Source: Haliotis rufescens
Taxonomy: Eukaryota
Assembly: GCF_023055435.1 (NCBI RefSeq)
Contig: NW_025963779.1
Coordinates: 10,540,001-10,604,000 of the forward strand
Direction: 5' to 3'
Length of the DNA stretch: 64,000 nucleotides
Shown here: piece by piece, positions 37,001 through 63,070 of the stretch
Layout: every line of letters starts with the position of its first letter
Numbering within the stretch: position 1 is the first letter of the stretch
Translations under genes and position numbers: made by a program
The notes under the pieces: model-generated
Told to the model about the DNA's origin: nothing
Seen by the model: the letters and a program-made list of their open reading frames with translations, nothing else
The model's database searches: none

Positions 37001-40000
37001 ATGACACAGATTATATGTACTAAGTTTGAGATGAATCCCCTGAATAGTTTTAGAGAAATTGCGCGAACAAAATTTTCGGACGGACAGACAGACAGACGGA
37101 CGGAACCTTGGTTTAACTATATACCCCGACATTTTGTCAGGGGTATAATAATCATGTGTATCAGTATCAACAATCATGTGTATCAGTATAAGTGAGTGAG
37201 TGAGTATGGTTTTACGCCGCTTTTATCAGCCAGCAATATCACGGCGGGGCGGGCTTCACACATTGTACCAATGTCGGGAATCGAACCCGGGTCTTCTGCG
37301 TGATGAGCGAACGTTTTAACCACTAGGCTACCCGACCGCCCTTGTATCAGTATAAACAATCATGTGTATCAGTATAAACAATCATGTGTATCAGTATAAA
37401 CAATCATGTGTATCAGTATAAACAATCACTTGTATCAGTATAAACAATCATGTGTATCAGTATAAACAATCGCGTGTATCAGTATTAACAATCACTTGTA
37501 TCAGTATTAACAATCCTGTGTATCAGTTTTAACAATCACGTGTATCAGTATAAACAATGATGTGTATCAGTATAAACAATGATGTGTATCAGTATAAACA
37601 ATCGCATGTATCAGTATTAACAATCAAGTGTATCAGTATTAACAATCAAGTGTTTTGGTATTAACAATCATGTGTATCAGTTTTAACAATCCTGTGTATC
37701 AGTATTAACAATCATGTGTATCAGTTTTAACAATCCTGTGTATCAGTTTTAACAATCACGTGTATCAGTATAAACAATGATGTGTATCAGTATAAACAAT
37801 GATGTGTATCAGTATTAACAATCAAGTGTATCAGTATTAACAATCACGTGTATCAGTATTAAGAATCACGTGTATCAGTATTAACAATCATGTGTATCAG
37901 TATTAACAATCATGTCTGTCAGTATTAACAATCACGTGTATCAGTATTAACAATCACGTGAATCAGTATTAACAATCAAGTGTTTCGGTATTAACAATCA
38001 CATGTATCAGTATTAACAATCACATGAATCAGTATTAACAATCAAGTGTTTCGGTATTAACAATCATGTGTATCAGTAATAACAATCAAGTGTATCGGTA
38101 TTAACAATCCTGTGTATCAGTATTAACAATCAAGTGTATCAGTATTAAAAATCATGTGTATTAGTTATAACAATCATGTGTATAAGTATTAACAATCAAG
38201 TGTATCGGTATTAACAATCCCGTGTATCAGTATTAACAATCATGTGTATCAGTAATAACAATCATGTGTATCAGTATAAACAATGATGTGTATCAGTATT
38301 AACAATCATGTCTGTCGGAATAACAATCACGTGTATCAGTATTAACAATCATGTCTGTCAGTATTAATAATCACGTGTATCAATATTAACAATAGTGTAT
38401 CAGTATGAACAATCAAGTGTTTCGGTATTAACAATCACGTGTATCAGTATTAACAATCAAGTGTATCAGTATTAAAAATCATGTGTATTAGTTATAACAA
38501 TCATGTGTATAAGTATTAACAATCAAGTGTATCAGTATTAACAATCCTGTGTATCAGTATTAACAATCATGTGTATCAGTAATAACAATCATGTGTATCA
38601 GTATTAACAGTCATGTGTATCAGTATTAACAATCACATTATCTCACCTTGATGTCATTGTCAATCCCCCCAGAGAAGATTTGTTCAGCTGTGTCGTTGAA
38701 ACTGACGGCTGTTACCTGGTATGTGTTCTGAAACGTCTGTATCACACCCTTCTTTCTGGCATCCCACAACTGGAACATAGCAACAGCACTGTACACATCT
38801 CCAACACCAATCTCCACAACAGCTGGCTATCTGAAGCTTGGAACTCAATTAGACAATCTATCAAAGTACAAAGTATACACAATGATATTCATGTAGTGAA
38901 TGTTGTTCTACGGTGCCTTTCAATAAGGTGAGGGGGTCTTGAACAAAATGCTAGTAAAGTGCTTTTCTGGCTTCATTAAATAAATACGAATCATGGGGCT
39001 ATGAAAATTAGCACACCGTATTCGACATAATAAGCGCCCCGCTCTAATAAGCGCCCATGGCGATATTTGCTAATATATTTACTAGTGAACAATCCCAATT
39101 AGCACCCCTTCCGATTGATCAATGTACACAAGACTTATTGATTCGTGTATAATACTCACTCGTGTGTTATATGCACCCTTGACTGTGGGCAATTAAATTC
39201 TAGAAAATATATCTCTCGTGTATGATACGTACATACTTTTCTTTTGTATCATTTCAAGCTGTCAGCATAAACTACTGTACGAAATTTACAATTTTTCAAC
39301 TCTGCTTTTGTTCTCACCAAAATTATATTCTAATAAGAGCCCACTATTTCCAATTTTGAGAGCGCCCCAGGCGCTTAATACGTCGAATACGGTATATATC
39401 AAAATAATGCACTACCTAATCTAGCCTATCCTAAATGACACTGTGAGATTTATGATAAACTTAGAAAATATTTGTGTTGTCATGCTCGGCCTAGGCAGGG
39501 TAGCAACAAGTACCATCTCTACTGTCTTTTGGTTTTATGCGGCCAGGGAATCAAACTACTGACATTCTGCTCTCCATGGAGATGCTCCATCCACTAGACT
39601 ACGGCGGCGGTCCCGGTACAAGACAAAATACAAACAAGTATCACCAGCCATCCTTGAATATCCAGTGTATATATCCATACTTGTGTTGAGTGTCTATGAC
39701 ATACCCTTGACCAATTTGCTACCTTAGCTTCGGTCAGGATGTTTCAGAACATCTCTCACTTATGTGTGTGATTTGATTGGGTATTTGTAGTGTCATGTCA
39801 GTCAAACCAGACTAATTCATAACAGAGCTAGTAGTGGTAGTATCCACATTTTCCAAATGCAAGGGAATTAACTGACTATAAAAGTCGAGTTTCCATACTT
39901 GCCAATTTGTTCATAGAACCACCAGTGGCTATTACGAGTTATGACCCTTCATATCACTAGCATTTGCTTGAAACAAATAGCCGCCTAGTCAACACGTCCT

Positions 40001-42224
40001 GATCGATAATCAAGATCATTATTGTAATAAAATGAGTCTTATCTCGTGAAGTGCAACAAATCACTTGAGCATGTTCATTAAAAGCATGAAAAGATTTGGA
40101 AAATATCTGTCGATGCCCAGTTGGGGTTACATATGTTTTGCAAATCATGCAATTGACTTAAATCTGCACTACAGTTGCCATGTTGTTTACAAACCAGATG
40201 TTGATTTTTTCCCACAATTTATGATTGGACTATGCACCGAATTTTTGGGACAGGCAAACTAAAACTAAGAAATTCCATCCTAGTGTGGCAAGAGTTTTGT
40301 TTGTTTGCTGTTTAACGCTGCACTCAGCAATACTCCAGATATGATGGTGGTCTATAAATAATCGATTCTGGACCAGACAATCCAGTGACTGACATGGTGA
40401 GCATCGATCAGCGCAATTGTGATACGATGACATGCATCAACCAGGTCGAGAGCCTTACCACCCACTCCCATTAGTCGCCTTTCATGGCAAGCATATGGGT
40501 TGCTGAGGATCTAGTCACCCAGGATCATCATGGGTCTTGGCAAGGGTGGAAAATGGACATAGTCAGTTCTCTCCCTTGCCTCGGGAGGACGTAGGGTGCA
40601 GAGCACTTATGTTAATAGAATGGATATGATACACTGGATAAGTGAGGTTCCACACAAGCTTACTTTGACTGTTCCATCATCACTTCCTGTGCACACCAGC
40701 TGTGGACCCCTTCTTGCAGGATTACAAGAGTTGACAAACGTCTGGTGACCTTTCAACTTGCGTATACGTGTTCCTGAATCAACATCCCACACTGCACCTG
40801 TCTTGTCCGTTGATACAGTGAACAGCATTCTAGATGGACATGAAGGAGTAAATGTAAACAACTGACAGAATGGGACGACATTTGCCTCATCATTTGAAGA
40901 ACTATGTAGCTGAATGTTGTGTAAGCTGGGATTGATCTAGGTATTCCGAGGTTAATATTCCGCTACAAACTTGTAGCAAATGCCATCCAAATTCCCAAAT
41001 TGGAATCAAAACCATTCAGGTAATTATACTTATACTTAGCATAATAGCTTTGTGAAAGCAACACTGACCTGATGGCTGATGGTTAATCATAATATATCCT
41101 AATAATTGCAAGTAACAATTTCACACATTTACCCTCCATCTGTGGAAAATTCTAAATCCATCACAGCTCCTGTGTGTCCTTTCAATACTGTGAAGTTCTC
41201 ACATTCCCCATATACTGTCCAAAAATCTGGAAATAAATGAAGAAGCACAATATAAAATATTTCTTGGTCCTGATTTTGAACTGATACATGAAAGTTTAGC
41301 AATAGTGTTATGGTTATCAGGTTATACCATGTTACACTGACATGTAGTATGACAGAAAAGTCCTTGCATCAAAAGATAGCTTGTCAGATATTTTCACAGC
41401 TAACATGTTAATTTGCTAACAGTATGCTGGAGAGCCTTTACATTATGTTTGATGATGATTTTTCAATGTGAATAAATGATTTTAATGGTATTTCAAATAA
41501 AAATTTCCACAAAACAAAAACAGCAGTCTTTCAATGCTCAAATTACTCACATATGAGCCTGTCAAACCCTGATGAAGCAATTAACTGCCCATCTGGAGAG
41601 AATTTGGCTGTAAATATTTCTCCCTCATGGCCTGTAAGCAGCATGATTGGCCCATCAAGACTAGATGTCCGAGGTGGACCCTGGCCCGAATAAACAAACA
41701 GAAAACTATGTTAACATCATTAAATATGTTTCTTCCAATTTTATTGTTGAGTAGAACTAGAAACACATTTCAGCCTGCAGTTTACAACCACAGTTATTTA
41801 TCTATCATTTTTCTGAGGAAGGCAAAAATATCTTTCCCATTTCATGCCTGTGCCAGGTAAAGTGATATCGTCAGTACTGATTCACTTCAGAATTTCATGA
41901 CACAGCACTGACAACAATATGGTTATGACAAAGAATAGTTTTCTTCAATACGAAGGGTTAATATACACTTTTCACCAATCTATATCCTAATTGTTTTCTT
42001 TCTAAAAACAAAATTACATTAACAGTGCAGTATGAAAACTAAATATAACAGGAGGGGAGACAATCCGCATACAGATATGGTCGGGCCGGTTTTCACGATC
42101 AACTTACATTCTGACTCTGTAGCAAAGCACCGTTCGTGTCGCCATCTGCTAAGACGACTTCATTTCCACGTGCCCGTTTAACGGGCACCAAAGCTCCATC
42201 CATTGCCTTTCTCTTGTGGTCCAT
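34038..42224 (-). CDS. SNRNP40: U5 snRNP 40 kDa WD40 protein (349 aa, 9 exons)
   Basis: complement(join(34038..34087,34614..34779,35472..35554,36592..36712,38647..38769,40664..40829,41133..41226,41551..41680,42108..42224)) = 1050 nt. Motifs [59 protein letters not shown] and terminal [12 protein letters not shown]. Confidence 0.96.
35921..36512. repeat. 24-bp minisatellite, ~25 copies, SNRNP40 intron
   Basis: Unit AAACAAGCATGGGATACTGG(CA/GG)AT; explains the 8-aa-periodic ORFs in the track. Confidence 0.97.
36841..37150 (-). mobile_element. Helentron-associated non-autonomous element (DINE-1/HINE architecture)
   Basis: On the - strand: TTATACCCC sub-TIR with a nearby inverted copy, (GTCY)n microsatellite, 3' GGGGTATT, hairpin AGTGAGCCACGCTCACT and CTTGTT end. 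Confidence 0.75.
37148..38636. repeat. 22-bp minisatellite, ~60 copies, interrupted by a SINE at 37192-37342
   Basis: Unit TGTATCAGTAT(T/A)AACAATCATG. Confidence 0.97.
39016..39392. mobile_element. Tc1/mariner-pogo type MITE
   Basis: TIRs CCGTATTCGACATAATAAGCGCC / GGCGCTTAATACGTCGAATACGG followed by TA. Confidence 0.75.
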
Positions 42225-43040
42225 GTTTACTATTTACTTTTGAAACGACAGAATCACGCTTCTTTTCAAACCGGAAGTTTATACATTAGGACATGCGCAT
42301 CTCACTTTCGGGAACCTGCAGCGCTATAGAGTATTTCAAAGTTTGTTGCGTGGAATTGGAAGTCTTGAGTATCCGAATGGAAAACAAACACAAACGCCAA
42401 ACATTTATTTTATTCGCTCGGACACCCACTCAGTAAACATCCACTCGATGTCATACTCAGCTCCCCGCCGAAGCGTCATTTAAAAACAAAATCATTATTA
42501 TATATATGCATGTTACCAGAGACCATATATTTATGGTCTCTGATGTTACCTTTTAGAGGGGTGTATTATGATCGGGGTCATACTACAAAATGCCATACAA
42601 AGTCAAAAACATTCAGTAGCGTTCGTCAATACGAATGAGACCTAGTGTATTAATCAGTTCATAAATTAAATAATAATTTGCAGAAGTGTGCAATTACTAT
42701 ATATGTTACTAACCTAGTTGGTTACAAAACGCGAAAATTACCAAATCACACAATGTAACCCCCCTGTCCTCCGAAAAAAATATTGATTGTGGCTTTGAGT
42801 TTAAAAGTAAATTCTAGCCCTATTTTTACAGCCTGGCTTGGGATTCTCACCATGCCCATGACCAGCTCACTGGCCTGAACACACACTATCATAGCGGGAT
42901 ATTAGCAGATTAGCCGAGAACAGACTATAGAGATCAAAGCGCCCTCTTACGGAAAGGTTTGGCGTCATCCTGGCGGATATGAAATAATTTTCGTGAATTC
43001 TGCGGCCAGTTTTAATCATATCAGTACAACACACTGTCCG
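42225..43040. promoter_or_regulatory. Bidirectional promoter SNRNP40/SRRT with probable non-coding SRRT exon 1 ending at 43040
   Basis: CCGGAAGT (ETS-like, 42271) and CATGCGCAT (NRF1-like, ~42292). Donor ccg|gtaaat at 43040. The SRRT ATG exon starts at an acceptor (43593), so an upstream exon is required. Confidence 0.5.
42517..42542. mobile_element. 26-bp CAGAGA...TCTCTG inverted-repeat remnant with 7-bp TSD (P-element-like footprint)
   Basis: ATGTTAC|CAGAGACCATATATTTATGGTCTCTG|ATGTTAC. Confidence 0.75.
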
Positions 43041-46600: not shown

Positions 46601-49600
46601 GGGTTCGATTCCCAGCATGGGTACAATGTGTGAAGCCCATTTCTGGTGTCCCCCGCCATGATATTGCTGGAATATTGCTGTAAGCGGCATAAAACCATAT
46701 TTACTCCCACACTTACTCAAACATTGACTAGAATGTGAACGAGTTATACCACAACACATAACACAACATAAATAATATCACTCACTATTTGCTCCTGGTA
46801 TATCCTTTATTTTCAGGGGGCACGGGTGGCCCAGTTGTCTAAGGCGCCGCCATTTGCTGTGCAGATTTGCTTCCCTTGGGCACGCCAGAAACCTATGATT
46901 GTGGGTTCGAATCCCGGTTCGCCCCAATTATGTTTCTAGGTTTGTCAGCACCATACCCGTGCTCGTGGGTTTCACCGAAGTGGTAAACGTCTGAGACCTG
47001 CATCACTTGGGGCTTTCCTCCCACATTAAGCTGACACGCCGTGATATAACTGGAATAATGTTAAAAGCGGCGTTAAACCCAACTCACTCACTCACTCTTT
47101 TGTTTTCATTGATGAGTTGGAAGTTTTTGCCTGTTGCATCAAAGTTACCTTCTTGTACACAGTGTCATACAAACTTATGTTTCATTGAGGAACTTGGGAA
47201 CTTAAACTCGCAAAATTATGTAATCTGTCCATCCGAACTACAGATTAACACTTGTGACATACTTGTTTCTGGTCTAACAAAAGTATGATGCAAGGAGACA
47301 GGTTTGGACTTCATGATGACAGCATGGTTTGAAACCTTGTTGATGTTTTGGTTTGGAGCCTGTTAAAAACTTCATTGATATTTTGACGTGGGAGGATCCG
47401 GGTTAGAATTGGTCTTCAACAACCCATGCTTGTCATAAGAGGCTACTAACAAGATTGGTGATCAGGCTTGCTGACTTGGTTGATGCATGTCATCATATCC
47501 TACTTGTGTAAATCGATGCTCATGATGTCAATCTGTGGATTGTCTGGTCCAGACCCGATTATTTACAGACCACAGTCACATAGCTTGAATATTGTTGAGT
47601 GTGGCGTTTCAACAACAAACAAAGAAGAAAGTTTGATGTTTTACTGTTTGCAGAATGGATGTGGACTACCCGACCCAGCCCTCGATGATGACGTTCAAGC
47701 AGTACCTCACACAGCAAGATGATAACATTAATGACCAAGATGCTATCAAGAAATATAATGAATACAAACAGGATTTCAAGAAAATTCAGATTAATGAGTT
47801 CTTTCTTGCCCACAAAGAAGAGGAATGGTATGTAGCTTTGGGTGTCTGGTCAACCTTCGACTCGAAACTAAATATGAGTCCTTGCATTATTTTATCAATT
47901 ATATGAATAATTGAGATTGATATATTGACTGTACAAAATGCATTTTGTGGTTGGAAGAAAAGTTTCATTTGAGTAAAGGTTTTGGATGAATTTCTAGAAA
48001 AATTCCTAAATTGCTATTTCAATCTGTTATATTACATGAGACAATGATGGTGACAATCCAAGGGATATATCACACACCTGGATTATGTTATCCTATATGT
48101 AGTTGATAACTGTTGAAATCTGTCGAAGTTGTATTCATAAATGAACATTGATGCATATCGAAGCAAATGGTAATGCTATGAATTTGTTTGTGTAATCTCT
48201 TTGAAAAATCACTTAGAAGATTGTTCAATTTGTAAGAATATTGTTTATTTTATGTTTGTAAAGGGGATCAGGTTTATTGATATAAATCAGAGCATGATCA
48301 CTATTTCATATTTCATGTACATTCAAAATTTGGGTTGCTTTTATTGTCCATGTTCGCGAATTCAGTAAACCCACATATATGCTGCCTGATTCCCTTTACT
48401 TATTATATTAACTTACTTTTTCACCCCCTATAAAGGAGCTGGGTTGCTATGGTGAATAATGCAATGACCTATCACTGGCCTGCTATGAAAATGAGATAGC
48501 CAATCACAAGAACCCTTTCACCGGAGCATGGATTTAGCTTAGGGTACTGCGCACAATGCAGTCTTTAGTTGATGAAAGTGTTAGGCATAGTGTAAGGTTC
48601 GTGAAAATATGTCATCGGAAATATTGTGACCGAAATATTACATTCCCGGGAATCACCAGTGTATGGTGGTGTCTACGTTGCAAGCAGGTAATTTCTGGTA
48701 AATACGATGGCTTCTGTTGCAGGTGAATCACCAACATGTATATTTTTGTTAACACAATGTTATGCCTATACAATGATGTGTTCTATTAAGTATGAAGACT
48801 TTGCGATTGATCATCTGTAAAGGCATAATGCTTGACGTTAAGCTAATGTTCTTTTTCAGATTATGTCCATAAGTCATGTTTTGATCTATGTTGATTGACG
48901 AACAAATTTCTAAAGGAGCATTAGTTTTACAATAATTATGTTTCATTTGAACATGTGTTGAAGAGAATAATCGATTAACTTCATCTTATTGAAGACCAAA
49001 AAGTGATCCTTCAGCTAATGAATTCTTGAATAAATAGGTGTTGCTATTCGGATGAAGCACTTGGGAACCTTAGAAACTGATGTTATGTTGAAATGTATTT
49101 AATTATATGTGATTTTTTAGGAATAGCTTCAATATTACAGATTTCAATGTGTCACTAAGGATCACCATTTTGATTTTAGAAACACAGATTTTGCAATGTT
49201 CACAGTTGTCTGTAAGAGTAATTGGGTTACTTGAGGCTTTTTCTCAAAGGAAGGAATGTGAAAGGCTTAATGGACTCATGTACAGTGTTTTATTTCTGGT
49301 TTGTTTTACTTGATAGGTTCAAACTGAAATACCATCCTGAAGAATGTGAGAAGCGTCAAGATGAAGTCAGAATGGCTTTGTTGAAAAGGTTGAGGGTTTT
49401 CACTGAACTGATGCAGCAAGATCGTTTAGAAAGCATCATGCTGGACATTGATAACACAGAAGACATCATTAAAGTGCTAGATGCAGGTAAGATGGTTGTA
49501 ATGGGCTTTTACATACATTGACTAGTTATATAGACACTGACATTGACATTGACACAGGTAGACTGTTTGCATCACCAACTCATTCTCTTTCTAATTGCCA

Positions 49601-52600
49601 TGGTGTGGTGAACTCCAAGGGAATCCATTTTTTTCTCTTTATACAATTCTCCCTTTTCAGTTTTTCCAGTCTTAGCCTTCTTCCCCGTTTTTGTCATTTT
49701 GGACGGAAGTCAATGCTTCGTCCCACGTGTCTTACTTGCAGTCAGATCTTCTCTCCATCTGACCTCATGATGTTTGTTCAGACTGTTGTGGGCGCTGTAG
49801 CACATCTGTGTGCTGTGTCAGTGCATGGATTTGACCTGATGAATCCTTCAGTAATTTCCCACCATAAATGTTGGAGCAAGAGCACCCTCGACGATTGAGG
49901 ATTTCGTCAAACTCCGCGCTTCTGTTGATGACAATCTCATTAAAATTAGATCTTAGTTTTTGCTACCGCTAAACAAAGATCTGAGGATATCCCATAACGG
50001 GTCACGTCAAAACGACCATTCGCGAACTTTGACCGACCAATGAAATGACTGACAAGAAATCGACATTAGCCAATCAGAAGGCAGCTTTCTCGAGCTTTAC
50101 AACACTAGTTTCAAACTGGCGACTACGCTTCGAAACATATTTTGACATATTCTCGATTAAAAATTTTAAACTGATTATAAGAACATTCTGGAATGGCTTA
50201 TAGATGGTCAAGTTTGTATGGATATAATCATAAAAACCGTAACTATCGTTCGGAATACCCTCTGTTAAATATTTTGAGGTTGCATGATAAGAAAACACAT
50301 ACCGTCCGTCACTTTCATAATCTGGTAAGCGACGCTCTGATTGGTTGGATGAAAGGTTGTTCTGACGTGACCCGTAATGGGATGTCCGCAGATCTTTGTT
50401 TAGCGATGGGCGACTAAGATCTGATTTTAATGAGATTGCTGTTGATGACAACAGTGTATCCGGGGTTCAGCTTGTGAAGCCTCGGCATTCGGCTGATTTT
50501 TTTCTTCCAGAATTCTATCATGGAACTCAAATCAACAATCATCTAAGGTTTGATGAACTCAAGATTGGGATGGGAAATCTAGGGTTCACCGATCACGGGA
50601 TCGGCAATCTACTCAGACTCGCCATACCTCCAATGACCGGACCTCTTACTTCTAAGTTTTGGCGAACATCTTAAGATTGGAACTCCTCTTGGAAGCAGCA
50701 CACTTCCAAGGTTCGACATACCTCACAGGATAGACACACCTCTAAGTATCACCGCACCTCTAAGGCACGACATATCTCAGAGATGCGATGTAACTCTAAG
50801 GATTGACGTTCCCCCGGGGTTTGATGAACCTCCATGGATTGACCTTCTTCCACTGAGCATTATTCCAAGTATCAACGATCAGGGAAACAGTCTACCCATC
50901 ATCTCTCATGGAGATACACTTCACATATCAGTTCGGAAGATGAATTTTATACCGACTTTAATGGACACTCATCTCACTTAGCCAGTTCCTCTTGTTCTAG
51001 TCATCCTGACTCACCTTCATGATCGTTCTCGCTCTGATGATTATCATCATCAACGACCAGATGTTTACTGGAACCCTGCTTCATATGATGACACTCTTCC
51101 TTCCTTACGCCGCTCAAGTTCCCCGTCTCCTCCTCAGGTTCAATGTCCGTCTACCGTGACTGTACCAGATCCTTCAGTGACACTAGTCTTCCACACAGAT
51201 ACTTCCTAAATCATGGAATCCTAATGATTTAACCTCCATCCCGGCGCAGCAACTTCAGTAGCTTTTACAAGGTGTGACGTCAGTGTGCCTCCCTCAGTCA
51301 GGGCCTCGTTCCTCAAAGTGATCTTAGCGCTACAATAATCGTAAGCCTAAGCCTGTTAAAGTATGGGACTTATGATCACTTTAGAGCTAAGATTGCTTTG
51401 AGGAATGGGGCCCAGGTCTTCCTATGGATACAGTAACTTCCGTCATGTACTCTCTGCAGCCTACGACATGGACCGTCCCATCTACTTCTCTTGTGGATCC
51501 GTTGCCAAAGAGGGATTTAATTGATTGTCATGCCTCCCCTGCTTCTTCCTCACTGCAGATCTGTTTATGGTTTTGAGTTGAATTGCGTATAAACTCCAGC
51601 TTCCTAAAAGTACTTCAGCCGCAGACAACTATCATCTTTAGTTGTCCCCTCTGCAATTTTGCCAAATAATACACTTCCCGGTTCATGTCTCCCATCCCCG
51701 ATCCTCAGGCTTAAGATTACAACACATTAGCAATCTTATGGGAGGGCCTACACGCTTACGCCTTTCTCCCAACCAGTGTTCTACCTTGGGTCCTGCAGAA
51801 GACCATGCCACTAGTAACCTCACACTGCTTTTGTCGTTGGCCAACATGGAGTTGGTTCTCCACACTCATCCAACTCGCCCACAGAAGATTTCATCATTTA
51901 CCCCTAAGCGTCAATCTTCTTCTTCAACCTCACTCTCAGCTCTTCCACCCATTGCCCGAAACCCTCAATCTGTGCGTCAGGCACATATACAGGAATCCCT
52001 TGTTGCCATGGGTTACTGTAAAAGGGTAGCCAAGACCATTTCTGAGGCTCATCGATCAACCAAGTCACTATACGACCATTGGTGGAAGGCTTTTGAGGAA
52101 TACTGCCACATGTGTAAGATTTCTACACCCACTACTGCTTCTCCACAACAAAGTGCCGAATACGTTCTTCATCTCCGGTCATCACGTAAGCTATAGGGTT
52201 CTTCCTTAGCAACGTATCTGGCTGCGATCAATTCTGTTCCACTCACCACTTCTTTGGGCATGTGTTGTTGGGTGTGTTCGGATGATTTTTTTATAGGTGG
52301 AAGCCTTTATTTAGGCACATTCCACTTAGGATCAAAAGAGAAGTGCATAGTGTGAGATAGGATAAGTATTATGAATATACATTTTTTATTGTTATAAAAG
52401 TTACAGTTTTGTGGATAACAACTTCGGGGTTTGTTGCATAACGTGACGTTTCAGTGTAGATCCTTACACCATTATCCAGCTGAATCCAGCGGAATCCAGT
52501 GCTGAACTGTTTCATTGTGTCACAGTATCTAAAGCATTTTCTTTAAGAATTCCTGATCTGCTGGAAAGGCACCAATGTAACTGAAGTTGAACAGTGTTTT

Positions 52601-55600
52601 GATGCTGTTCTGTAACTGAAATACAATTTGTGTGATTTGCTATCATCTGAACTGGTGATAACCCAGTGGAGCACATATGATAATGTACTATGTTTGTATG
52701 CTTATGGAAAGGAGCTCTCTATGGGTGGCTCACTAAAGAGGTTGGCACAGCCTGTGATTTTGATAGAACATTAAGTGCTCATTACCTTTGCAGTTTCGAA
52801 CAAGTCCAAAGTCAGTAAAATTTGCAGGGATACATGTTAGCTTGTTGGTAACTAAATGTTGTTTTTGATGTAACAATCTCTTCTCTTCCTGGAGAACATG
52901 GAGAAGAATTATATGACAATTACTGTTGTTCTCAGCTGTCATCAAAATGGAGGGAGGATCTGATTTTGACTTGACCATTCTTGACCAGCCAGAGAAGGAG
53001 GAGGAGGTGCCTCGCAGCAGAAACAACTCCGAGTCCCATCCGGTGGAGAAAAGGTAACTCTGTCAATTGTTACTGTACTTGAATCTGAAAAAGAAATAAA
53101 GCTGGACCATTGTGATTAGCTTTAGATTATATGAATGAGATGTTAAGAGAAGCCAGGTTGTCACAGGGAAATAATGATCATGATATATTGAATATTTTCC
53201 ATATACATGAGAAGCCAAGGGGTGATAAAACTGGAAGGATGTTTCTTATGGGACTTAACAAAGTGTATTTGTTTACAGATAAATTTAGGATGGCCATACA
53301 AATTGCAAAACAAAATTAACAATCCAAAATGCAAAAGATTATGTAGAGCATATCTGAGAACCTACAAGGAATAACTGTTTGTCGGTCCTAGTTGCATTGA
53401 TTATTCATATCTTAATGCTTGGTGTAAGCCCTTGTGGATGTGTAGGTATTTCAGGTCTGTTTGTCGGTCCTAGTTGCATTGATTATTCATATCTTAATGC
53501 TTGGTGTAAGCCCTTGTGGATGTGTAGGTATTTCAGGTCTGTTTGTCGGTCCTAGTTGCATTGATTATTCATATCTTAATGCTTGGTGTAAGCCCTTGTG
53601 GATGTGTAGGTATTTCAGGTCTGTTTGTCGGTCCTAGTTGCATTGATTATTCATATCTTAATGCTTGGTGTAAGCCCTTGTGGATGTGTAGGTATTTCAG
53701 GCCTGTTTGTCATTGTAGTAGCCCTGAAGAGGAGAAGAAGAAGAAGGCACCACCTCCAGAGAAGATTGAGGAAGAAGTGAAGAAGGAGGAGTCATCAGCA
53801 GAACCTGCGAAAGAGGTGAGTATAATACAGGGGTAGTGGATGGTTGTGTCTGCGAAAGAAGTGTGTATAATAGATGGGGAGTGGATGGTTGTGTTTCCTG
53901 GTTCCTGAAGAATGGAAGGTCGGTGGTGGAGGCCCTGGCCTCGTCATACAAAATGACATTAAGAGATAGTACTTGTTGTTACCCTGCATAGTGCTTGGCA
54001 TTAAGGGGCTAAATCAAGAACTGGCCGGAGAGGGAGTCAGTGTGTGCCCTGAGTAGGGTGTCCATGTTAATTTGCAGCATGGTATCTCAGTGTGCTTGCA
54101 CTATAAAGCCTAAGTCTGGACTAGTACAAGTCACCGTTACACACATGTGCATACGCATCGCTGTATGAGTGAAATAGTTTTTAACACAATGTAAAACTGC
54201 ATTTCACCTCACCACCTTAGACTATCTGGTAAGGGTTGGTAACTCTAAGCACTCTTCAAATGCATTGTGGTGCATAGTTTTCTTGACATTCGACATGTGA
54301 AGGTTGTGGGTTAGAATTCTCATAAGAGGTGACTAACATGATCTGGTGGTCAGACTTGCTGGCTCAGTTGATGCATGTCACCATATCCTATTATGTTCAT
54401 TAAAGCTCATGATGTCAATCACTGGATTGTCCAGTCCAGACTCGATTATTTACAGACCGCTGTCATGTAGCTGGAATATTACTGAGTGAGACATTAAAAA
54501 CAAACAAGAAAATCTCGATATTCAGTGTTTTGTTGGGTCAACTTTTGTTTTAATTTGTTTTGTGTCTTTTTGTGTTGCCTCTTCATCCATAAGTTTGCAT
54601 GTGAGTAACTATTACTGATTAGGTTGAATGATTTTGTGCTTCTATGCCTTTTATGCATTTTGTAATGATTGTTTATTTAATGCTTCATTTTTGTTGATAA
54701 TAGCTGTCCCCCCCCCCCCCCCCCCCCCAACTGTTTATGTACAGACACTGTTCAGACAATTTATCTTGAAAAATCATTGTATCCAAGAGTCGGGTAGTAC
54801 CAGGATGGGTTTACAGCTAAGTGTCACAAAAGGGCCATATTGTGCACTTTGAGTTAAAAGCATGAAACTTGGTACATTAAAAGCTTTCACCATGGTAATA
54901 TATTTTGGCTCTAGGGCCAAACAAAATGGAGGCCATTTTCAAGATGGCCGCCATTATATGGCTGAATTCAGCTATTATCGAGAAGAACTGACACAATTAA
55001 TACAATGAAACCCAATTACTTCTTTGATATGAGTGAATATGTTAATAGTGCAAAACAAATGGTTAAATGGTTAATTTTAAGGTAAAAATGGCGGAGAAAG
55101 TGTCAAGCAATTATCTGAGATTGTGGAATAACCCACAATCTTTGAGTTAAAATAATGAAATCTGACACATTAACAGCTCTAAACAAGCTGAATAATTTTG
55201 GCTATAGGACCAGCAACATGTTCAATAATTTTAAAGATGGCCGCCTTGTAATGGGATGAAGAACCTGTGTACCAAATGTCATGCTTTTAACTCAAAGTGC
55301 ACAATTTAGTCAAAAAGCCGCTCCACTAACTGGGCAATAACTTTTAGACCAAGTTTAGAACATCCTTGCATCTCAATTGCATATCATCAGGTAGTCGTAA
55401 GCTTCTGTACCTCAAAATAACTTCTTGAGACACAAAGGTCGGGTCTGGCCTTTATGCTGACTGCAGCAAAGAACACTATTCATAATAGTTAACTGTAACT
55501 GTATTGGGATCCAGGGTCTTGGGAGATGACAGTTTTTTAAGCATAATTGCTTTTCAGAAACCATTGCAGATGACCATAACAGCTGAACAACGGGAGTTGC

Positions 55601-58600
55601 AGAAGAAAGCGAAGGAGTTCCAGCAACTGAAAGAAAAAGAAAAACATGATAAGGTACATGAAACTCCCGAAACTGAAGACTTTTAATTTGGCGGGAACTT
55701 TGCATCACCAAATTTAATGTGAAAAAAATAACAGGCAATAGCGATCAGCTGCACTGAAGTGCTATGCTTAGGGTTATTATTATTTTAAATATATTTAGTA
55801 AAAGCTGCAACTGAAATTACAAGATATTGGAATAATTTTTTACTTATCCTGCATTACTCCTTAATGCATTCACTGCTTACTTACGACAACTAGAAGGACA
55901 GCGCTGCGAAGGTCCTGGGTGAAGAAACAAAGTTGTTGTTCTCAAGTCCCAATCAGTGGCCTTCCGTCGCTGTCCTGTGACCTTGATGACACCTAAGGTC
56001 ATCTTCACATCACTGCTTGTCGCAGCACAGCTAGGACGTGTCCAAGCGGAGCTCTCCTTTTGGATTAATTTTAGACCTTCAGTTTGTCTACAATCTTAAA
56101 AATTGATCTGCGATGGGTGATGTATTCTTTTCATATTACTTTCACCATGTTGTGTAGTTTTATATGAATTAATTAGGCGTGAAAAGACGCTTGTCTTTTT
56201 TCCCGCCAAAATATTGTTGTTCGCCGCCATTTTGAATTGTGTTACAATCGTTTGCCTGCCAAGGTAGTCATATTGTTTACAATTCTCAGCTACGTATGTA
56301 TAACATATTCTTATGTTCTTAAATATTACTAGCTTTGGCGTAACAGTGAGTTGCGTATACTAAAATTATTGTATACTTTTTCAACTCGTTAAAAATATGG
56401 TTGCCGATAGATTAATATCAAATCTACGGCTTTCTTCCAGTCCCGCTTCATCAACAATTCTTTTATTGCGTACCTATGTTTATGCGATTAAATAGTTTTT
56501 TGTTGGTATTTTTGGTTTTACATTGACATTTACATGAACTATTGTATACTCTTGCAACTCGTAGTTTTTGCCGATAGATTATTGTTCAATTCTATGGCAT
56601 TCTTCCAGTACCGCCTCATCAACAATGGCGTAATTGTGTTTAATTTAAACATATTTTATTGACATATATGGTCAACGGGATTGGGCAAAAGTTATCCAAC
56701 TTAGGTGGCCCTTTCCCTACTCTATATGTACAGACATTGAATATACATATATATATGTAATTGTGTAACTTATGATTGAGCGTGGTATTAATTGTCGTGG
56801 GAAAAATCTTACAAAGATTATCATCCACGTTGTTTGGTTTGCGCGCAGATGTGCTCTCCAAACCCTAAATGAAAATATAAATACCCTTGGTTTACATTGG
56901 GTTGCGCATACAAAAATATTGTATATCCTTGCAACTCATAAATTTGCCGATAGATTAGTGTTCAAATTCTTCGGCACTCTTCCAGTATTATCTCATCAAC
57001 AAGGGTTTCATTGCGTAACATACCTTTGAGCATTTTACTAATTGTCGTGGAAAAAACCTTACAAGATTATCATCCACGATTGGTTGGTTTGCGCGCGGAT
57101 GTGCTCTCCAATCTCTAAATGTAAATAGCCTTGGTTTACATTGAATTGCGTATATAAAAATATTGTATACCCTTGCAATTCGTATTTTTGCCGATAGATT
57201 ACTGTTCAATTCTACGGCATTCTTCCAGTACCATTTCTTCAATGGTTTAATTGCGTAACATAATTATGTTTGCTCGGTGTACATATTGTCGTGGAATAAT
57301 CGCCCAAAGCTCTTTATCCACGGTCATAGGCATGCACGTAGATGTGCTCGCCAAAATTCAAAATGTAATTTTTATGTAAATCTCTAATCCAACGAGTTTA
57401 CTATATAAAAGCAGATTACTCACAATCATATTTTGCAGTTATTCCGTCGTGAGACGAGAGGAATGTCACTATCGCAGAATAGCGAATGACATATGGTTCT
57501 GTCATTACCACCCAACCGTTATTATCGGCAGGTATTATGACGACTGTGATTGCAGAAGTACACCATCCACCGAAATCAACAATACCGGAGGATTTTGTGA
57601 GTATCGTAACTGCTCCTATTTTTTCAGCCGCCGGACACTTCCAGATACATGTATGATAATCTGTGACGTCGGCGACAGCACCAGCGTATCGAGATGCTAT
57701 GATGGGGGTAGATTAGACACAAGCCTTGATCCAGTCAATACTTTTGAGCTTTGTGTCTGATTTATCTGCGCCGAGCGCAGCACTTGACTACAACCAAAGC
57801 ATTTCTATTACGCAATCGGCGCACGATCAGCTTAGCGCTGTTCCAACATATCCAGCATAGACCTGCGCCGAGCGCAGCGTCTGACTGATACCCAAGCGCT
57901 CCTATCACGCCAGTGACGCACGATCAGCTTAGCGCTGTTCCAACATATCCAGCATAGACCTGCGCCGAGCGCAGCGTCTGACTGATACCCAAGCGCTCCT
58001 ATCACGCCAGTGACGCACGATCAGCTTAGCGCTGTTCCAACATTCCAGACCTGCGCTGAGCGCAGCGTCTGCGTATCAATCAAGGTCTCTACAATGACGT
58101 TAGCCCAAGGCTTACAGTGTACCGGTTACGTAACCGGCACATGATCAGCTTAGCACATGTACCCGATTGGGAAGCAGACCATCTCGTGTCAGTAACGCCT
58201 TCCCCTGATAACAGGGTAAATAAGAGGGACACCACGAGGTCATTGGAGGAAGCCTTCTCCAAAACTCACATTTGCTCCGTGATTTAAGCGACCAATATCG
58301 TCAATGTTTGCAGTGGATCAGAATCTATTAGAGGATAACCCTATCTGATTAGATCACTTCCAAACTATGGTGTTTTTCCTACAGCGTCAGTTTGACCACA
58401 GGAAAATTCATCTTGAGACCGTTCTGACGGTGATTACCGTTACACCCAAGACTTTATAGCGTTTCCAACTGAGATGCTGGTTTCAAGGGCAGTCTATTAC
58501 GTCAACCTTGATCATCTACTCCCCTGTTCAACGAACAGATCGCAGACACGCACGTCAAGTTCCCAAAAAGCTTGGAAAGTCCAAGTCAGGGAATTATAAG

Positions 58601-61600
58601 CCTAGACGCGCGTTTCTCAGGGAAGACCAGCATTCCCTTACTGAGAAAGGGAGTGGCAGAGACAAGTCTCAAGGATGATTTCGTACTTATCGCACTATAT
58701 CATGGTGTCCGTATAAGGGTAGAGTTAACCCCACCGTTGACCACAGTTTGATTGGGAAAATCCAACATAGACATACTGTTGGTAAGAAGAGCTGTAGAGT
58801 GGGTTCACAACCCAGTCTTTACTCCGGGGTTTTATCCTCACACCTACCTGGTACTCATGAAGGACCCAGACAAGATGAGAATGATCCACAATCTCTGTGT
58901 TCAACGAACGTTTGATTCTTCATCAGTCTCGACTATCCATCCCAACCGTAGACTTTTCAGGTCCAGTTCATTGGGGTTCACTACCAATGGTAGTATTTCC
59001 CATTTGACATGTCAGTGACACTTATGGCTATTTACAGGAGTAATGAAGCCAATAACTATCTACACGTGACGAACACTTGGTTCGAGTCGTAGATGGAGGG
59101 CGATCTACTGTATCATCAACACATGTCAATAACTGGGATAGACAATCAACGAGGCGAAGTCGGGAGTATTCTCCTTCCTTTTGACTTCAGTTCATAGGAG
59201 ACCTGTTTAAGACAGACCAGGATATCCTATCTGTACCGAGGGACAGATGGCACAAGTTTCTACTTCTTTTGTCATCTACTCTACACCAACCACACACACT
59301 TCGCCAGTGGCAAGTGTTGCTAGGGTTAATCACCTCGGCACAGGAGTTAACTAGCATGGGCCGCTTACAACAGCAACCAATTCAATTTTTTTCCTGAACC
59401 CTTACATCAGGAGTCAGGATCCACTCAAGGCCATCACTCTACCAACTAAGCTAGAGCCTCAATTTGTGGCGCTGAATGTCTGCGGAGTCTGTTTATTCGG
59501 ATTTTCCCCGAATACACACCTGTTTGTGGACGTCCCTTTTCAGGGGTGGAGTCTTCACTTACAAGACCAGATAAGCTCAGGGCTATGGCCCGGCGCACAA
59601 TGGAAGTGGCACATAAACAACTTGGAGTTGGAAGCTTTAATTCTGGCTATATCACATTGGCAGAATCAACTACAGTTAGCCCGACTCGCTATATCCACAG
59701 ACAACAGCACTGCGGTGTGGTGCCTGTGCAATCGGGGAACAACACACTCCCACTCTCCACTTCTAAGGACATTCAGATTTCTTCCATCTAGTGGATCGGC
59801 TGTGACTAAGGTTCATAGTTCAGCACATCCCCGGATGTAGAAACATACTGGCCGATACTTTATCACGTCCAGACAGGGTGGCTCCCACTGAGTGGAAATT
59901 TCTCACAGAAGCATTCCAGTTACTGCTTCAGGAATTCAGGCAACCAAACATTGACTTGTTTATTACTTGCCTAGGCCACCAACTCATGACGTATATCTCC
60001 CCGTTGCCGGATCCGCAGACTTGGGCGGTGGACGAGTTCAGTATCACTTGGGAAGGGCAAAGAACTAAAACTCTTCTGCCACCACTTTTACTTCCAAGGT
60101 GCTACAGGGGATCAAGGAGACAAGGTATCTCGATCTCTCCTTTGGTCGCACCATGGTAACCGGCGAGAGGGTAGTTCGTCAAGCTCGGAAAAATCTAAAA
60201 CGATTCACTTCCCCTCTCACAGTGGTCCAACCTACTCATCCACCCTCAACAGAAAATTGCCTCACCCAACGTCTGCACGCATGGTTCGTCTTTAAAAGGC
60301 GTTTAAGTGCGAAGGGTTATTTCGACACGGGCAGCAAAGCTATAGCTTTAGTTCATCGTTACTCTCCCAGAGACGACGATGACAAGTGGGGATCACTTGA
60401 GACTTTTTACAGGGAAGAAAAGAATCAAGACCCTACGATTGCGTCACAATTCCTAGAGGAATACCTCCTACATTGCGTACCCAAAAACACTTGGAAGGTA
60501 GCACCATTACTACGTAATTGGCTGCAATTATCTTAGTGTTGGCCGTTTCCGGAAAATCACAGTGTGATTAAGGTCACGGAACTACAGGCCATATTATGCT
60601 CATTCAGGTTTGAGGATCAGAAGGCCAAGTTCCAGCCACCTGATTGGGACTTGAACGTGGTACTTCGAGGTTTGCGAGGGCCCCCTTCGAGCCCCTCATT
60701 GCATCCTCATTTTCAAGCTCCTTCCCAGCGCGTGACACCTTCGTTACACTCTCGGTATAGTATAGAGAGCTCCGCGAACGGGCTATCGCTGTGAGGAGCT
60801 TGGACCTCACCAAGGAAACAATGGTTTTCTCTTGGCATTAGCAATGGCGGTACGGGTGAGCGAACTACATGTGGTCGACTCAACCCGGATCCGTTTTGAG
60901 CATGGGACGCACGGAACAGGACATCTAGGGTTATGCTGGGATTTTATTGCTAAAATCTACTACCAGGCCAACCCGACCGTTCTTCACCATCCCACCGATA
61001 TCGACTATTGTGGGAATCGTACATGGTGAAGTTCTCCTGGGCTCGGTGCGAGCAGTTCGAGTTTTCATTCGACGCTCCAAGACAAGGCGTGGTTCGTCCA
61101 CGACAGAAGTTAGTCGCATAATCGCAAACACCATATCTATATGGTTACGCGCAGTAATCCTTCAGGCCTACGAGATCATCAAACGGAACTCGCCGAGAGC
61201 GAATTACCCTCAAGATCTCAAGGTGTCAGCCTTACCAGGGCTCAACACGGCAATTGTGGTTTTGGAACAATCACGGAAGGATATTTCTGGAGATTCGACA
61301 CATATTTTCGTTAGTCATAACCTTCGCGTTGTGACTCTCGAGGATGTCAAAGACGTTCGAAGTTTGGCCCTCTGGTTGTTATCCTGCAGATTGCCAACCA
61401 CTGACGCAAATAATGAACTCGCCCTATACAGAGCCAGTCAACTTCCATGTGCAGTCACTCAGTCGCCACCAGTGGAAGAATATTAGACAATCTTGTTTGT
61501 CAGCGACGGCTCTATGACGCAGTAAGTAAAGAATTAGCTGAATAGCTATTATTTTCTTTATTACTAAGCGTGTATAGGGAATTTCTCTTTAATTCCTATG

Positions 61601-63070
61601 TTCAATGTTTTTGATTTTTGAACAACCCTACCGTAATGGCGTTTTTGTCTGAACTTTTCCGCTTCACGGTTTATCGACCAATGGGGTCGTATTGCAGGGT
61701 GTGAATTATTGAGGTTTCTGTATTCTGAAGGTTGACCCACCTCCAAACCGTCCGATACAGATGCATTAAGGAGTAATGCAGGATAAGTAAAAAATTTAGT
61801 AAAATCTAAATATTTTTTACATTTGTATACTTATCCTGCATTACTACGCTTAAGGCCCACCCGTCGTTAGACTTGCCTCCCCACTTTGGCTTCAGAAACC
61901 TCAAAAGTATGTTTTTCTAAGAGCTTGGGCGACAGGCAGTGATGTGAAGATGACCTTAGGTGTCATCAAGGTCACAGGACAGCGACGGAAGGCCACTGAT
62001 TGGGACTTGAGAACAACAACTTTGTTTCTTCACCCAGGACCTTCGCAGCGCTGTCCTTCTAGTTGTCGTAAGTAAGCAGTGAATGCATTAAGGAGTAATG
62101 CAGGATAAGTATACAAATGTAAAAAATATTTAGATTTTACTAATATTATTCATGATAAAGAAATAGTTTTCAGATACAATTTTTCCTTCAAAATCCTTTA
62201 TAGTTATTTCATTGGGTAAGATGTAACCAAATCACTGGTAGATTCCAAGAAAACATGTGTACAGCTGATTGATGTTTCCGGCTTAGTTTACGAGAAAATA
62301 CACAAGGTAATCTTAATCCCTGGATGTAAAACGATGCCCAGCAGAACAAACAATACAATTTAAACAGTAAATCAACATGTCTGGTGATTTTTATTTCAAA
62401 TTTTAAATTTGTACTAACCAAGTTTCTTTGACTCATATGGATTTTGTACAAATTTGGTGGCATATATTGTTTGGGACACCATAGGATTCCATTTGATTCT
62501 TATGATGCTGACTTGAAACTAAAAATAACTGAGTGTTTTCAGTATGGGACTTGTTCTTATATAACAAGTAGAAGAGAGTAGCACTACAGATGAAATATGA
62601 TTAACCCTCACAAGATATTTGACCCGATTATTTCTTGCTTTGTCAGTACTATATTCTAGCTTGTGGGTTTCAACAAAGTAGTAACTGTCAAAGACCTGCA
62701 TCACTTCTGGCTTTGCTCCCACTTCAAACTGACACACCATGGTATAACTGAAGTAGTATGCGTTCACTCTCTCACTCTCTACATGAAAAGTAACATAGAA
62801 ATATCTACTATATTAACATAACTTCCATCATCGCCAATTACTCACTTCAGGAACTAAAGAAGGCTGGCAAGAAGCACCATAGAGACAAGAGTGATTATAA
62901 TTATGAAAGCGGTTCCTCAAGTGGGTCAATAAGCTCGTCTGAATCAGAATCGGATGACAATGAGCCTCTGCCCCCAGGGGTGGATAATGATGGGGAGCCC
63001 CTCCCTGCTGGGGAAACGGACATCTACAGTCTGGATGAGGACAAACAAGAGAAGAAGGTCAAGGAAGATG
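43601..63070 (+). CDS. SRRT: Serrate RNA effector / ARS2, 5' partial (continues beyond window)
   Basis: join(43601..43719,44561..44725,45790..46023,47654..47827,49317..49486,52936..53053,53722..53815,55558..55653,62851..63070,...), phases consistent. Motifs [47 protein letters not shown]...[17 protein letters not shown] and [16 protein letters not shown]. The last three low-complexity exons are less certain. Confidence 0.93.
45307..45432. mobile_element. Tc1-derived MITE in a TA run
   Basis: CTACTCAAAAGAAGTTAAAGAACACCC ... GGGTGTTCTTTAACTTCTTGTGAGTAG; same TIR as the 20581 element; TA-repeat flanks. Confidence 0.8.
46547..46716 (+). mobile_element. tRNA-derived SINE family A
   Basis: A box and B box (GGTTCGATTCC); TSD TCAAACAT(G/T)GACT. 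Confidence 0.88.
46816..47097 (+). mobile_element. tRNA-derived SINE family C (others ~7590-7745 -, 17850-18100, 18290-18512, 28488-28660, 32700-32930, 62620-62780)
   Basis: A box GGTGGCCCAGTTGTCTAAGGCG, B box GGTTCGAATCC, shared body CTAGGTTTGTCAGCAC...GACCTGCATCACTT, (ACTC)n tail. Confidence 0.85.
47385..47622 (+). mobile_element. High-copy SINE-like family B (others ~4030-4295 -, 5460-5702, 20820-21028, 21770-21945, 23140-23330, 29265-29480 -, 34153-34372 -, 40295-40535 -, 54320-54505)
   Basis: Shared core GCTCATGATGTCAATCACTGGATTGTCTGGTCCAGAC..GATTATTTACAGACC and (CAAA)n tail in at least 10 copies. Confidence 0.85.
49932..50438. mobile_element. ~510-bp MITE, copy 2, with 10-bp TSD
   Basis: TIRs CAATCTCATTAAAAT.../...ATTTTAATGAGATTG flanked by CTGTTGATGA at 49922-49931 and 50439-50448. 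Confidence 0.9.
50450..52250 (+). mobile_element. Second, older truncated DIRS-like relic (boundaries approximate)
   Basis: ORF 51642..52196 C-terminus ([36 protein letters not shown]...EYVLHL) aligns by eye with the YR N-terminal region in ORF 60099 ([19 protein letters not shown]...DDKW...EYLLH). Confidence 0.65.
53375..53711. repeat. 82-bp tandem repeat, 4 near-identical copies plus a partial
   Basis: CTGTTTGTC starts at 53375, 53457, 53539, 53621 and 53703. Confidence 0.97.
54838..55306. mobile_element. Inverted-repeat non-autonomous DNA element
   Basis: ATTGTGCACTTTGAGTTAAAAGCATGA..TTGGTAC and its reverse complement at ~55269-55305; internal repeated AAGATGGCCGCC. Confidence 0.7.
55841..56023 (+). 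repeat. DIRS left inverted terminal repeat
   Basis: Reverse complement of 61929-62111 with one mismatch near the inner end. Confidence 0.95.
57766..58070 (+). repeat. 97-bp GC-rich tandem repeat (~3 copies) inside DIRS
   Basis: CTGCGC(C/T)GAGCGCAGC recurs at 57766, 57863, 57960 and 58051. Confidence 0.9.
58752..61486 (+). pseudogene. Frameshifted RT/RNase H/MT and tyrosine recombinase ORFs of the DIRS element
   Basis: Domains are split over ORF fragments 58752, 59466, 59878, 60099, 60564, 60832 and 60947 by stops and frame changes. Confidence 0.85.
61761..61845. repeat. DIRS internal complementary region (ICR)
   Basis: First half is complementary to the element's left end; second half is complementary to the right end and its extension (TACAAATGTAAAAAATATTTAGATTTTACTAA). 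Confidence 0.9.
61929..62111 (-). repeat. DIRS right inverted terminal repeat
   Basis: Reverse complement of 55841-56023, followed by a 3' extension to 62143. Confidence 0.95.

Follow-up and report, generated by a model that had tools for sequence, protein, structure and literature searches.

A stop-carrying cassette exon in intron 5 of abalone SRRT contains a 15-nucleotide element shared with crustacean-like loci and human

Whether the SRRT/Ars2 gene regulates its own output through unproductive splicing of a single intron is the question raised by this locus, part of a 64,000-nucleotide stretch of the Haliotis rufescens genome that was analysed as a whole (the window). A first-pass annotation, made from the letters alone, had proposed a candidate poison exon in intron 5 of the gene and, with it, a possible ancient switch for ARS2 autoregulation. 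Coding exon 5 (47654..47827, + strand), delimited by spliced contigs, has 98% identity with the serrate RNA effector molecule homolog of Haliotis cracherodii and ends GAG GAA TG, in phase 2 of a Trp codon. Coding exon 6 (49317..49486, +) matches the ARS2 chains of PDB 6f7j and 6f7p (E 4e-12). Between them lies SRRT intron 5 (47828..49316, +), which is 1489 nt long, single-copy and selectively retained. Its number fits, a spliced contig of run X6 (record 16) adding 100 bases 5' of the ATG exon. In the amplicons of the PMC8860587 supplement the 3' end of mouse intron 5 rejoins within the Trp codon at the identical TG|G point, so that codon and phase agree at the EEW|F junction, the position that had earlier been tentatively equated with mammalian intron 5. 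Abalone SRRT intron 5 corresponds to mammalian SRRT intron 5.

Some features of the surrounding gene were also observed. A minus-strand WD40 gene at 38650-42230, which among natural proteins matches U5 snRNP 40K best (SNRNP40, E 5e-30), lies head-to-head with SRRT, with approximately 1.4 kb between its start and the ATG exon of SRRT; the two genes, both concerned with RNA processing, may have a common promoter. In the abalone annotation, isoform X3 (P0001) begins in the counterpart of exon 4, in this resembling the mouse 'group 2' isoform in the accessible part of PMC8860587. SRRT introns at 55850-62100 and 50500-52250 contain degraded mobile-element-like sequence, with 55850-56040 and 61890-62100 resembling inverted copies of one another by eye, and tandem repeat arrays with units of about 21 nt and about 80 nt, likewise recognised by eye, are present at 38000-38640 and 53370-53700.

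The sequence of the proposed exon is exactly as had been described. A pyrimidine tract and AG run to 48435, the donor CAG|GTAATT is placed at 48687|48688, and the segment between them (48436..48687, +) is 252 nt in length and GC-richer (0.437) than the intron upstream (0.308) or downstream (0.318). The acceptor region (48407..48435, +) comprises a likely branch point, placed by consensus only, followed by the pyrimidine tract and AG. Read in the frame TG|G AGC, the exon gives the expected 21-letter peptide and then a premature TAG (48497..48499, +), with three further in-frame stops at 48566, 48593 and 48602. The TAG lies 188 nt 5' of the cassette donor, and thus more than 50 nt before the downstream junction as a poison exon demands. 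The splice signals by themselves would not have proved the exon; in a rough weight matrix, skewed to TG|GT donors and with a few mis-placed training sites, neither cassette site was in the top 4 among the intron's 87 GT and 69 AG dinucleotides. The donor GTAATT is followed by a conserved flank (the two together spanning 48688..48833, +). This flank contains a second AG|GT at 48700-48730, an acceptor-like tract followed by CAG|GTGAAT, which was used by no joint in the runs examined.

Use of the exon was examined in six contig sets taken as RNA on the strength of their spliced joints, two of which (X12 and X14) represent one sample. Joints were tabulated for four runs, from three organisms and four studies, with depths that are contig averages and a poor gauge of level or inclusion rate; in X6 and X14 junctions were read from unitig ends only. 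The joint that skips the cassette (47827>49317) was observed in all four runs, at contig depths of 32, 43, 62 and 11, the downstream inclusion joint (48687>49317) in three of the four (depths 19, 12, 0 and 8) and the upstream inclusion joint (47827>48436) in one (X12, depth 4), all of these joints being GT..AG. A unitig corresponding exactly to the exon (48435-48689) was present in three of the six RNA-type runs (X12, X14 and X6, the first two again one sample), and in X6 it had a depth of 24, above the 6-8 of the intron halves on either side of it and below the 30-46 of constitutive exons. Because RNA-type contigs show use of its acceptor and of its donor, the cassette stands above chance, and it is a real exon.

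Intron 5 was also covered end to end at a depth of approximately 11-15 in X1, X9 and X12, whereas its coverage in X5 had gaps. Depth over the start of the next intron (49492-49560) was 0 in all four runs, and in X6 the unique-sequence bins of introns 2-4 had a depth of 0 save for one at 3; X14 contained two low-depth contigs within intron 3. Intron 5 is therefore retained while neighbouring introns are spliced, the feature that marks a detained or retained intron. Four fates of intron 5 were observed, in that it was removed cleanly, spliced with inclusion of the cassette, retained in half or retained in full, with an early stop in the last three; read-through out of exon 5 into the intron meets a stop after 26 codons. 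Whole or half retention was about as common in contigs as clean cassette inclusion, a point that the first-pass annotation had missed, and X9, from organism C, had skipping and full retention only. The junctions proposed by the first-pass annotation (47827-48436 and 48687-49317) are thus present in RNA-type contigs, as is retention, and its poison exon proves to be a stop-carrying cassette that is both included and skipped.

The intron had also been described as free of SINE or MITE sequence, unlike its neighbours, and this holds. It has one match in its own 1.33-Gb genome, in a search that passes over very common words, and the DNA run covers it evenly at a depth of 38-55, whereas the repeat bins of introns 2-4 reach 9,600 to millions. 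A transposon origin of the cassette exon was rejected, as this search and the DNA depth give no sign of further copies in the genome. When 47600-49600 was searched against Rfam at E<=10, four weak matches were obtained, all far under gathering score, and the foreign loci L004 and L016 discussed below likewise gave no match at gathering score; a known Rfam RNA (snoRNA or miRNA host) in the cassette was rejected because gathering score was not reached. From the 21.6 million reads of small-RNA run X21 two matched, none of them in intron 5, and there is no sign of abundant small RNA from intron 5 in this library.

Conservation within the intron was scored from per-contig difference counts in close relatives, which also supplied the intronic background. 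Between organism C and the reference no differences were found in the 252 nt of the cassette exon, compared with 67 in 2659 nt (2.5%) of introns 2-4 (Fisher p=0.002); the comparison with the remainder of intron 5 gave p=0.011. The exon was free of differences in both X9 and X12, which are not independent because most differences are common to both. The upstream half of intron 5 (47828..48435, +) was moderately conserved in organism C, with 7 differences in 608 nt (Fisher p=0.02 against the 2.5% background), and the 146-nt flank downstream of the cassette had no substitutions, whilst the last 483 nt of the intron, with 17 differences, changed at the background rate. Organism D, judged against the background of organism C, showed a nearly identical pattern of differences, with one substitution and one 3-nt deletion in the downstream flank. 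Three differences upstream of the cassette are unique to the reference. Among these close relatives, then, the exon is conserved above intronic background, as had been anticipated.

A metagenome scan for the SRRT intron extended the comparison to 28 foreign loci, of which 14 had a complete intron, 10 a partial one and four (L017-L020) no intron at this position; the last were excluded from motif counts, leaving 24 introns and 21,389 bases. Thirteen of the 14 complete introns, in annelid-like and crustacean-like loci, are GT..AG at the identical phase. The fourteenth is that of the barnacle-like locus L004 (81% to a barnacle protein), where exon 5 is not followed by a GT and no further intron occurs. 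L004 is most simply a transcript spliced to an internal acceptor, so that the second half of the intron is retained; the join creates an immediate stop (TG|A), and 249 nt in there is a candidate donor. At the protein level, 17 of 265 sequences continue past exon 5 with residues impossible from a GT donor. Two of these are full-length. The other 15 end early and belong to oyster-like, barnacle-like and copepod-like sequences and to the model of a millipede, so that alternative acceptors leading to early stops are widespread.

Other shared stretches were noted at these loci. At this junction the alternative exons of copepod-like sequences have common peptide traces, DLVL.. and IILVSVLL.. (P0036, P0037, P0074, P0096, P0214; L027:4440-4540; P0056, P0058, P0064, P0066), which suggests a second, lineage-specific conserved DNA element in a copepod-like poison exon. 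A 22-nt stretch starting from a candidate internal donor is 21/22 identical between L015:1907-1928 and L016:2365-2386, both crustacean-like. The oligochaete-like paralogue loci L022, L023, L025 and L026 have in common a 60-95-nt block in the SRRT intron, again lineage-specific.

Within the abalone exon a short element, overlooked by the first-pass annotation, was indicated by three oyster-like read-through open reading frames, which end in peptides matching the exon in two frames and which pointed to the DNA at 48547-48561 ahead of obtaining foreign DNA. This 15-mer occurs with one mismatch, on the same strand of the same intron, in L004 and in L016 (75% to a copepod protein), that is in two of 24 foreign introns compared with 0.001 expected per shuffle, and as the motif was spotted first in the oyster peptides this count is out-of-sample. 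The human amplicon designated 'intron 5 region 963-1289' in the supplement of PMC8860587 matches by eye at 14 of 15 letters. In human the motif lies at about nt 136 of this 326-327-nt region, at nt 112 in the abalone exon and at nt 123 in L004; the human region has the length of a listed 326-nt NMD exon, and it is from this length only that the motif can be placed in that exon. The 15-mer is thus common to a gastropod, two crustacean-like loci and human, and the word 'ancient', a guess when first applied to this intron, gains stronger support from a sequence element. The Paralvinella-like locus L002 keeps the last nine letters (0.004 expected in the L002 intron) with a similar predicted hairpin fold.

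The distribution of the element is patchy. The full 15-mer is absent from 22 of the 24 foreign introns, 12 of them complete (oligochaete-like and several crustacean-like), which indicates that it was lost repeatedly, and it was not noticed by eye in the mouse amplicons, which represent parts of intron 5 without its middle. A candidate in L008 with three mismatches was treated as chance. Among 80 read-through tails motif peptides were found in the three oyster-like ones only (0.0065 expected), most tails stopping before the site. With a covariance model built on three sequences, no sites other than those used for training scored meaningfully in the 24 loci or the window, and a gapped motif pattern gave no matches in genome contigs and none in viral contigs.

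The 15-mer is predicted to fold, within 48546..48562 (+), into a 6-bp hairpin with a CACAA loop, and directly 5' of it lies a short element, TAGCT(T)AGG (48535..48543, +), seen in alignments with L004 and L016. A 6-bp stem and C(A/G)CAA loop are predicted for the abalone, L004 and L016 DNA alike, and when the whole abalone exon is folded five pairs reach probabilities of 0.96-1.0 and the closing G-U one of 0.62. The folds are not unusual in energy compared with shuffles, their z-scores being weak (-1.3, -1.3 and -1.9), and covariation on three sequences is not significant, amounting to one double change, matched in 170 of 500 shuffles. The stem changes that were observed keep pairing, the outer pair being A-U, C-G or G-U and a C-G becoming U-G in human, with pairing in the human and oyster stems judged by eye or by inference. 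The near-invariant stem and loop letters suggest recognition of both sequence and shape by a reader. The ARS2 RRM binds UC- and AG-rich single-stranded RNA alike with micromolar affinity, in the accessible part of PMC5923425, and because it has so little sequence preference a separate RNA-binding protein is more likely to be the reader than ARS2 alone, possibly acting together with CBC-ARS2. That the predicted hairpin is a protein site is a reading held with modest confidence. Being near-unchanged in the same intron of human and crustacean-like animals, the abalone exon element is probably a very old control switch.

The same letters may be read in another way. Positions 48554..48560 (+) form a 7-mer complementary to nt 2-8 of miR-33 5p, taking the mature 5' end, as is presumed here, to be nt 6 of a mir-33 precursor that is present in the abalone's own genome (73.6 bits, cut-off 50). 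The 15-mer could then be a miR-33 target site, alone or hairpin-gated, that acts post-splicing on stop-carrying or retained messages. The seed match is present at all three sites (abalone, L004 and L016) and also in human and in L002, whose nine retained letters include it. The predicted duplex, at -17.0 kcal/mol, ranks second among the 15 seed matches that the window contains on its two strands and pairs motif letters 2-14, with both variable letters tolerated (A/G facing U9 and C/T facing G14). However, the seed site would be buried in the predicted stem with a pair probability near 1, there is no A opposite miR-33 nt 1, and neither the co-varying outer pair formed by letters 1 and 15 nor the upstream TAGCT(T)AGG is explained. 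The 3' pairing follows automatically from the symmetry of the hairpin because miR-33 repeats UGCA, the 7-mer is at chance in the 22 introns lacking the 15-mer (2 seen, 2.2 expected), and the match was noticed post hoc with a mature 5' end that was assumed. An NMD target would, moreover, scarcely need a miRNA site, and a miR-33 target is considered unlikely. The hairpin and miR-33 readings are confounded on sequence alone, and a poison exon of the bilaterian ancestor could conceivably have been a two-state switch, offering a closed C(A/G)CAA hairpin to a splicing regulator and, when open, a full miR-33 site, a proposal as doubtful as the miR-33 site itself. If true, it would wire the level of ARS2, itself a miRNA-processing cofactor, to miR-33, which is among the oldest animal miRNAs and is hosted in SREBP genes, through an exon that makes no protein.

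The retained forms of intron 5 raise a further alternative, as the shorter protein ARS2c arises from SRRT intron 5 in both mouse and human according to the accessible text of Mesa-Perez 2022 (PMC8860587). The abalone intron might similarly serve a short cytoplasmic ARS2c-like protein made from retained messages, the stop exon being part of the leader. An intronic ATG (49270..49272, +) in frame with exon 6 would be a possible ARS2c-like start, retention is abundant, and L004 keeps the second intron half like the mouse variants. This reading is judged a little less probable still than a miR-33 target, since an in-frame Met is found in just four of 15 complete introns and the start is thus not conserved, the 3' part of the intron that holds the ATG changes at the background rate given above (17/483), and the cassette lacks an ATG in the frame of exon 6 past its last stop; on general grounds, a long upstream open reading frame would also hinder re-initiation. 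Leaky splicing of a slow intron without any regulatory role, with the 15-mer due to chance or to a DNA-level function such as an enhancer, would account for the lack of the motif in most sampled lineages and for the six further genome copies of a degenerate 15-mer, where about four are expected and no common context was seen. It is nonetheless very improbable, being at odds with the recurrence of the motif in the same intron, on the same strand and at a similar exon offset in distant lineages, with stem changes that preserve pairing, with zero differences over the exon and both splice sites, and with neighbouring introns that are not retained.

The reading preferred here, to which a probability of roughly 0.7 is assigned as a whole, is that intron 5 is spliced in three ways, that the messages so diverted are lost to protein production, and that the hairpin is read by a conserved RNA-binding protein. 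Intron 5 would be removed, spliced with the 252-nt stop exon, or kept whole or in half. The inclusion and retained forms are likely degraded or kept nuclear, the early-stop exon likely sending the SRRT message to destruction by NMD, as the 50-nt rule would predict, and the retained forms being candidates for nuclear detention. The 15-nt element in the exon would then be the likely site at which a conserved RNA-binding protein sets the diverted share, through a C(A/G)CAA loop presented by a hairpin presumed to fold in vivo, and the level of CBC-ARS2 may feed back onto inclusion. The splice forms, the stop, the selective retention, the local conservation and the identity with mammalian intron 5 are directly supported. 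An unproductive-splicing switch at intron 5, resembling a classic poison-exon switch, is the part held with high confidence, whilst true feedback on ARS2 level is given even odds. What is new here is the sequence element, which is common to protostomes and a deuterostome. Between vertebrates and invertebrates the poison exons of RNA-binding-protein genes usually keep their logic and not their sequence, and a 15-nt element that has stayed in one intron, on one strand and at one exon position from snail to crustaceans to human would point to an ancient trans-acting reader. It would also be a precise target for work on ARS2 dosage control, on ARS2 autoregulation and on the question of decay versus ARS2c at intron 5.

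Among known RNA structures, RBMY-type stem-loops have C(A/U)CAA pentaloops, and the abalone hairpin, with a CACAA pentaloop on a short stem, is like this motif. RBMY is not known outside mammals, and the arthropod SRRT loops are CGCAA, unlike the RBMY-type loop. Neither the hairpin nor autoregulation of SRRT was found described in the literature searched, a search outside which most subscription papers lay, and the accessible parts of PMC4618350, PMC12868714, PMC12952242, PMC6969169 and PMC9830547 contain nothing on an SRRT exon. The poison exon alone is a member of a well-known class, and the human SRRT one is already listed. Human SRRT EI_NMD exons are given at chr7:100882765-100883090 and 100882458-100883090 in the portion of Lim 2020 (PMC7347940) consulted, and an SRRT poison cassette is SNORD22-sensitive with a PSI of 0.19 in bioRxiv 10.64898/2026.04.02.716167, the accessible text of which does not name its intron. 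The human exon is like that of abalone in gene, in being a conserved stop-carrying cassette and in size (326 compared with 252 nt), and probably has the same intron and 15-mer, the overlap resting on length. It differs in that the accessible accounts report it as conserved in vertebrates only and describe no hairpin, invertebrate counterpart or miR-33 match. Mouse and human ARS2c, in the available part of PMC8860587, share intron position, phase and partial retention with abalone; there the retained intron is read as the source of an N-truncated protein, whereas the in-frame start is not conserved in the invertebrates studied here. Table 5 of PMC8652244 includes SRRT/Srrt/Ars2/E01A2.2 among the AS-NMD genes of human, mouse, fly and worm; this list, as far as accessible, is at gene level only. 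In RBM39/caper, as treated in the accessible part of the same paper, the mechanism is conserved and not the sequence, whereas in SRRT an element is common to protostomes and a deuterostome.
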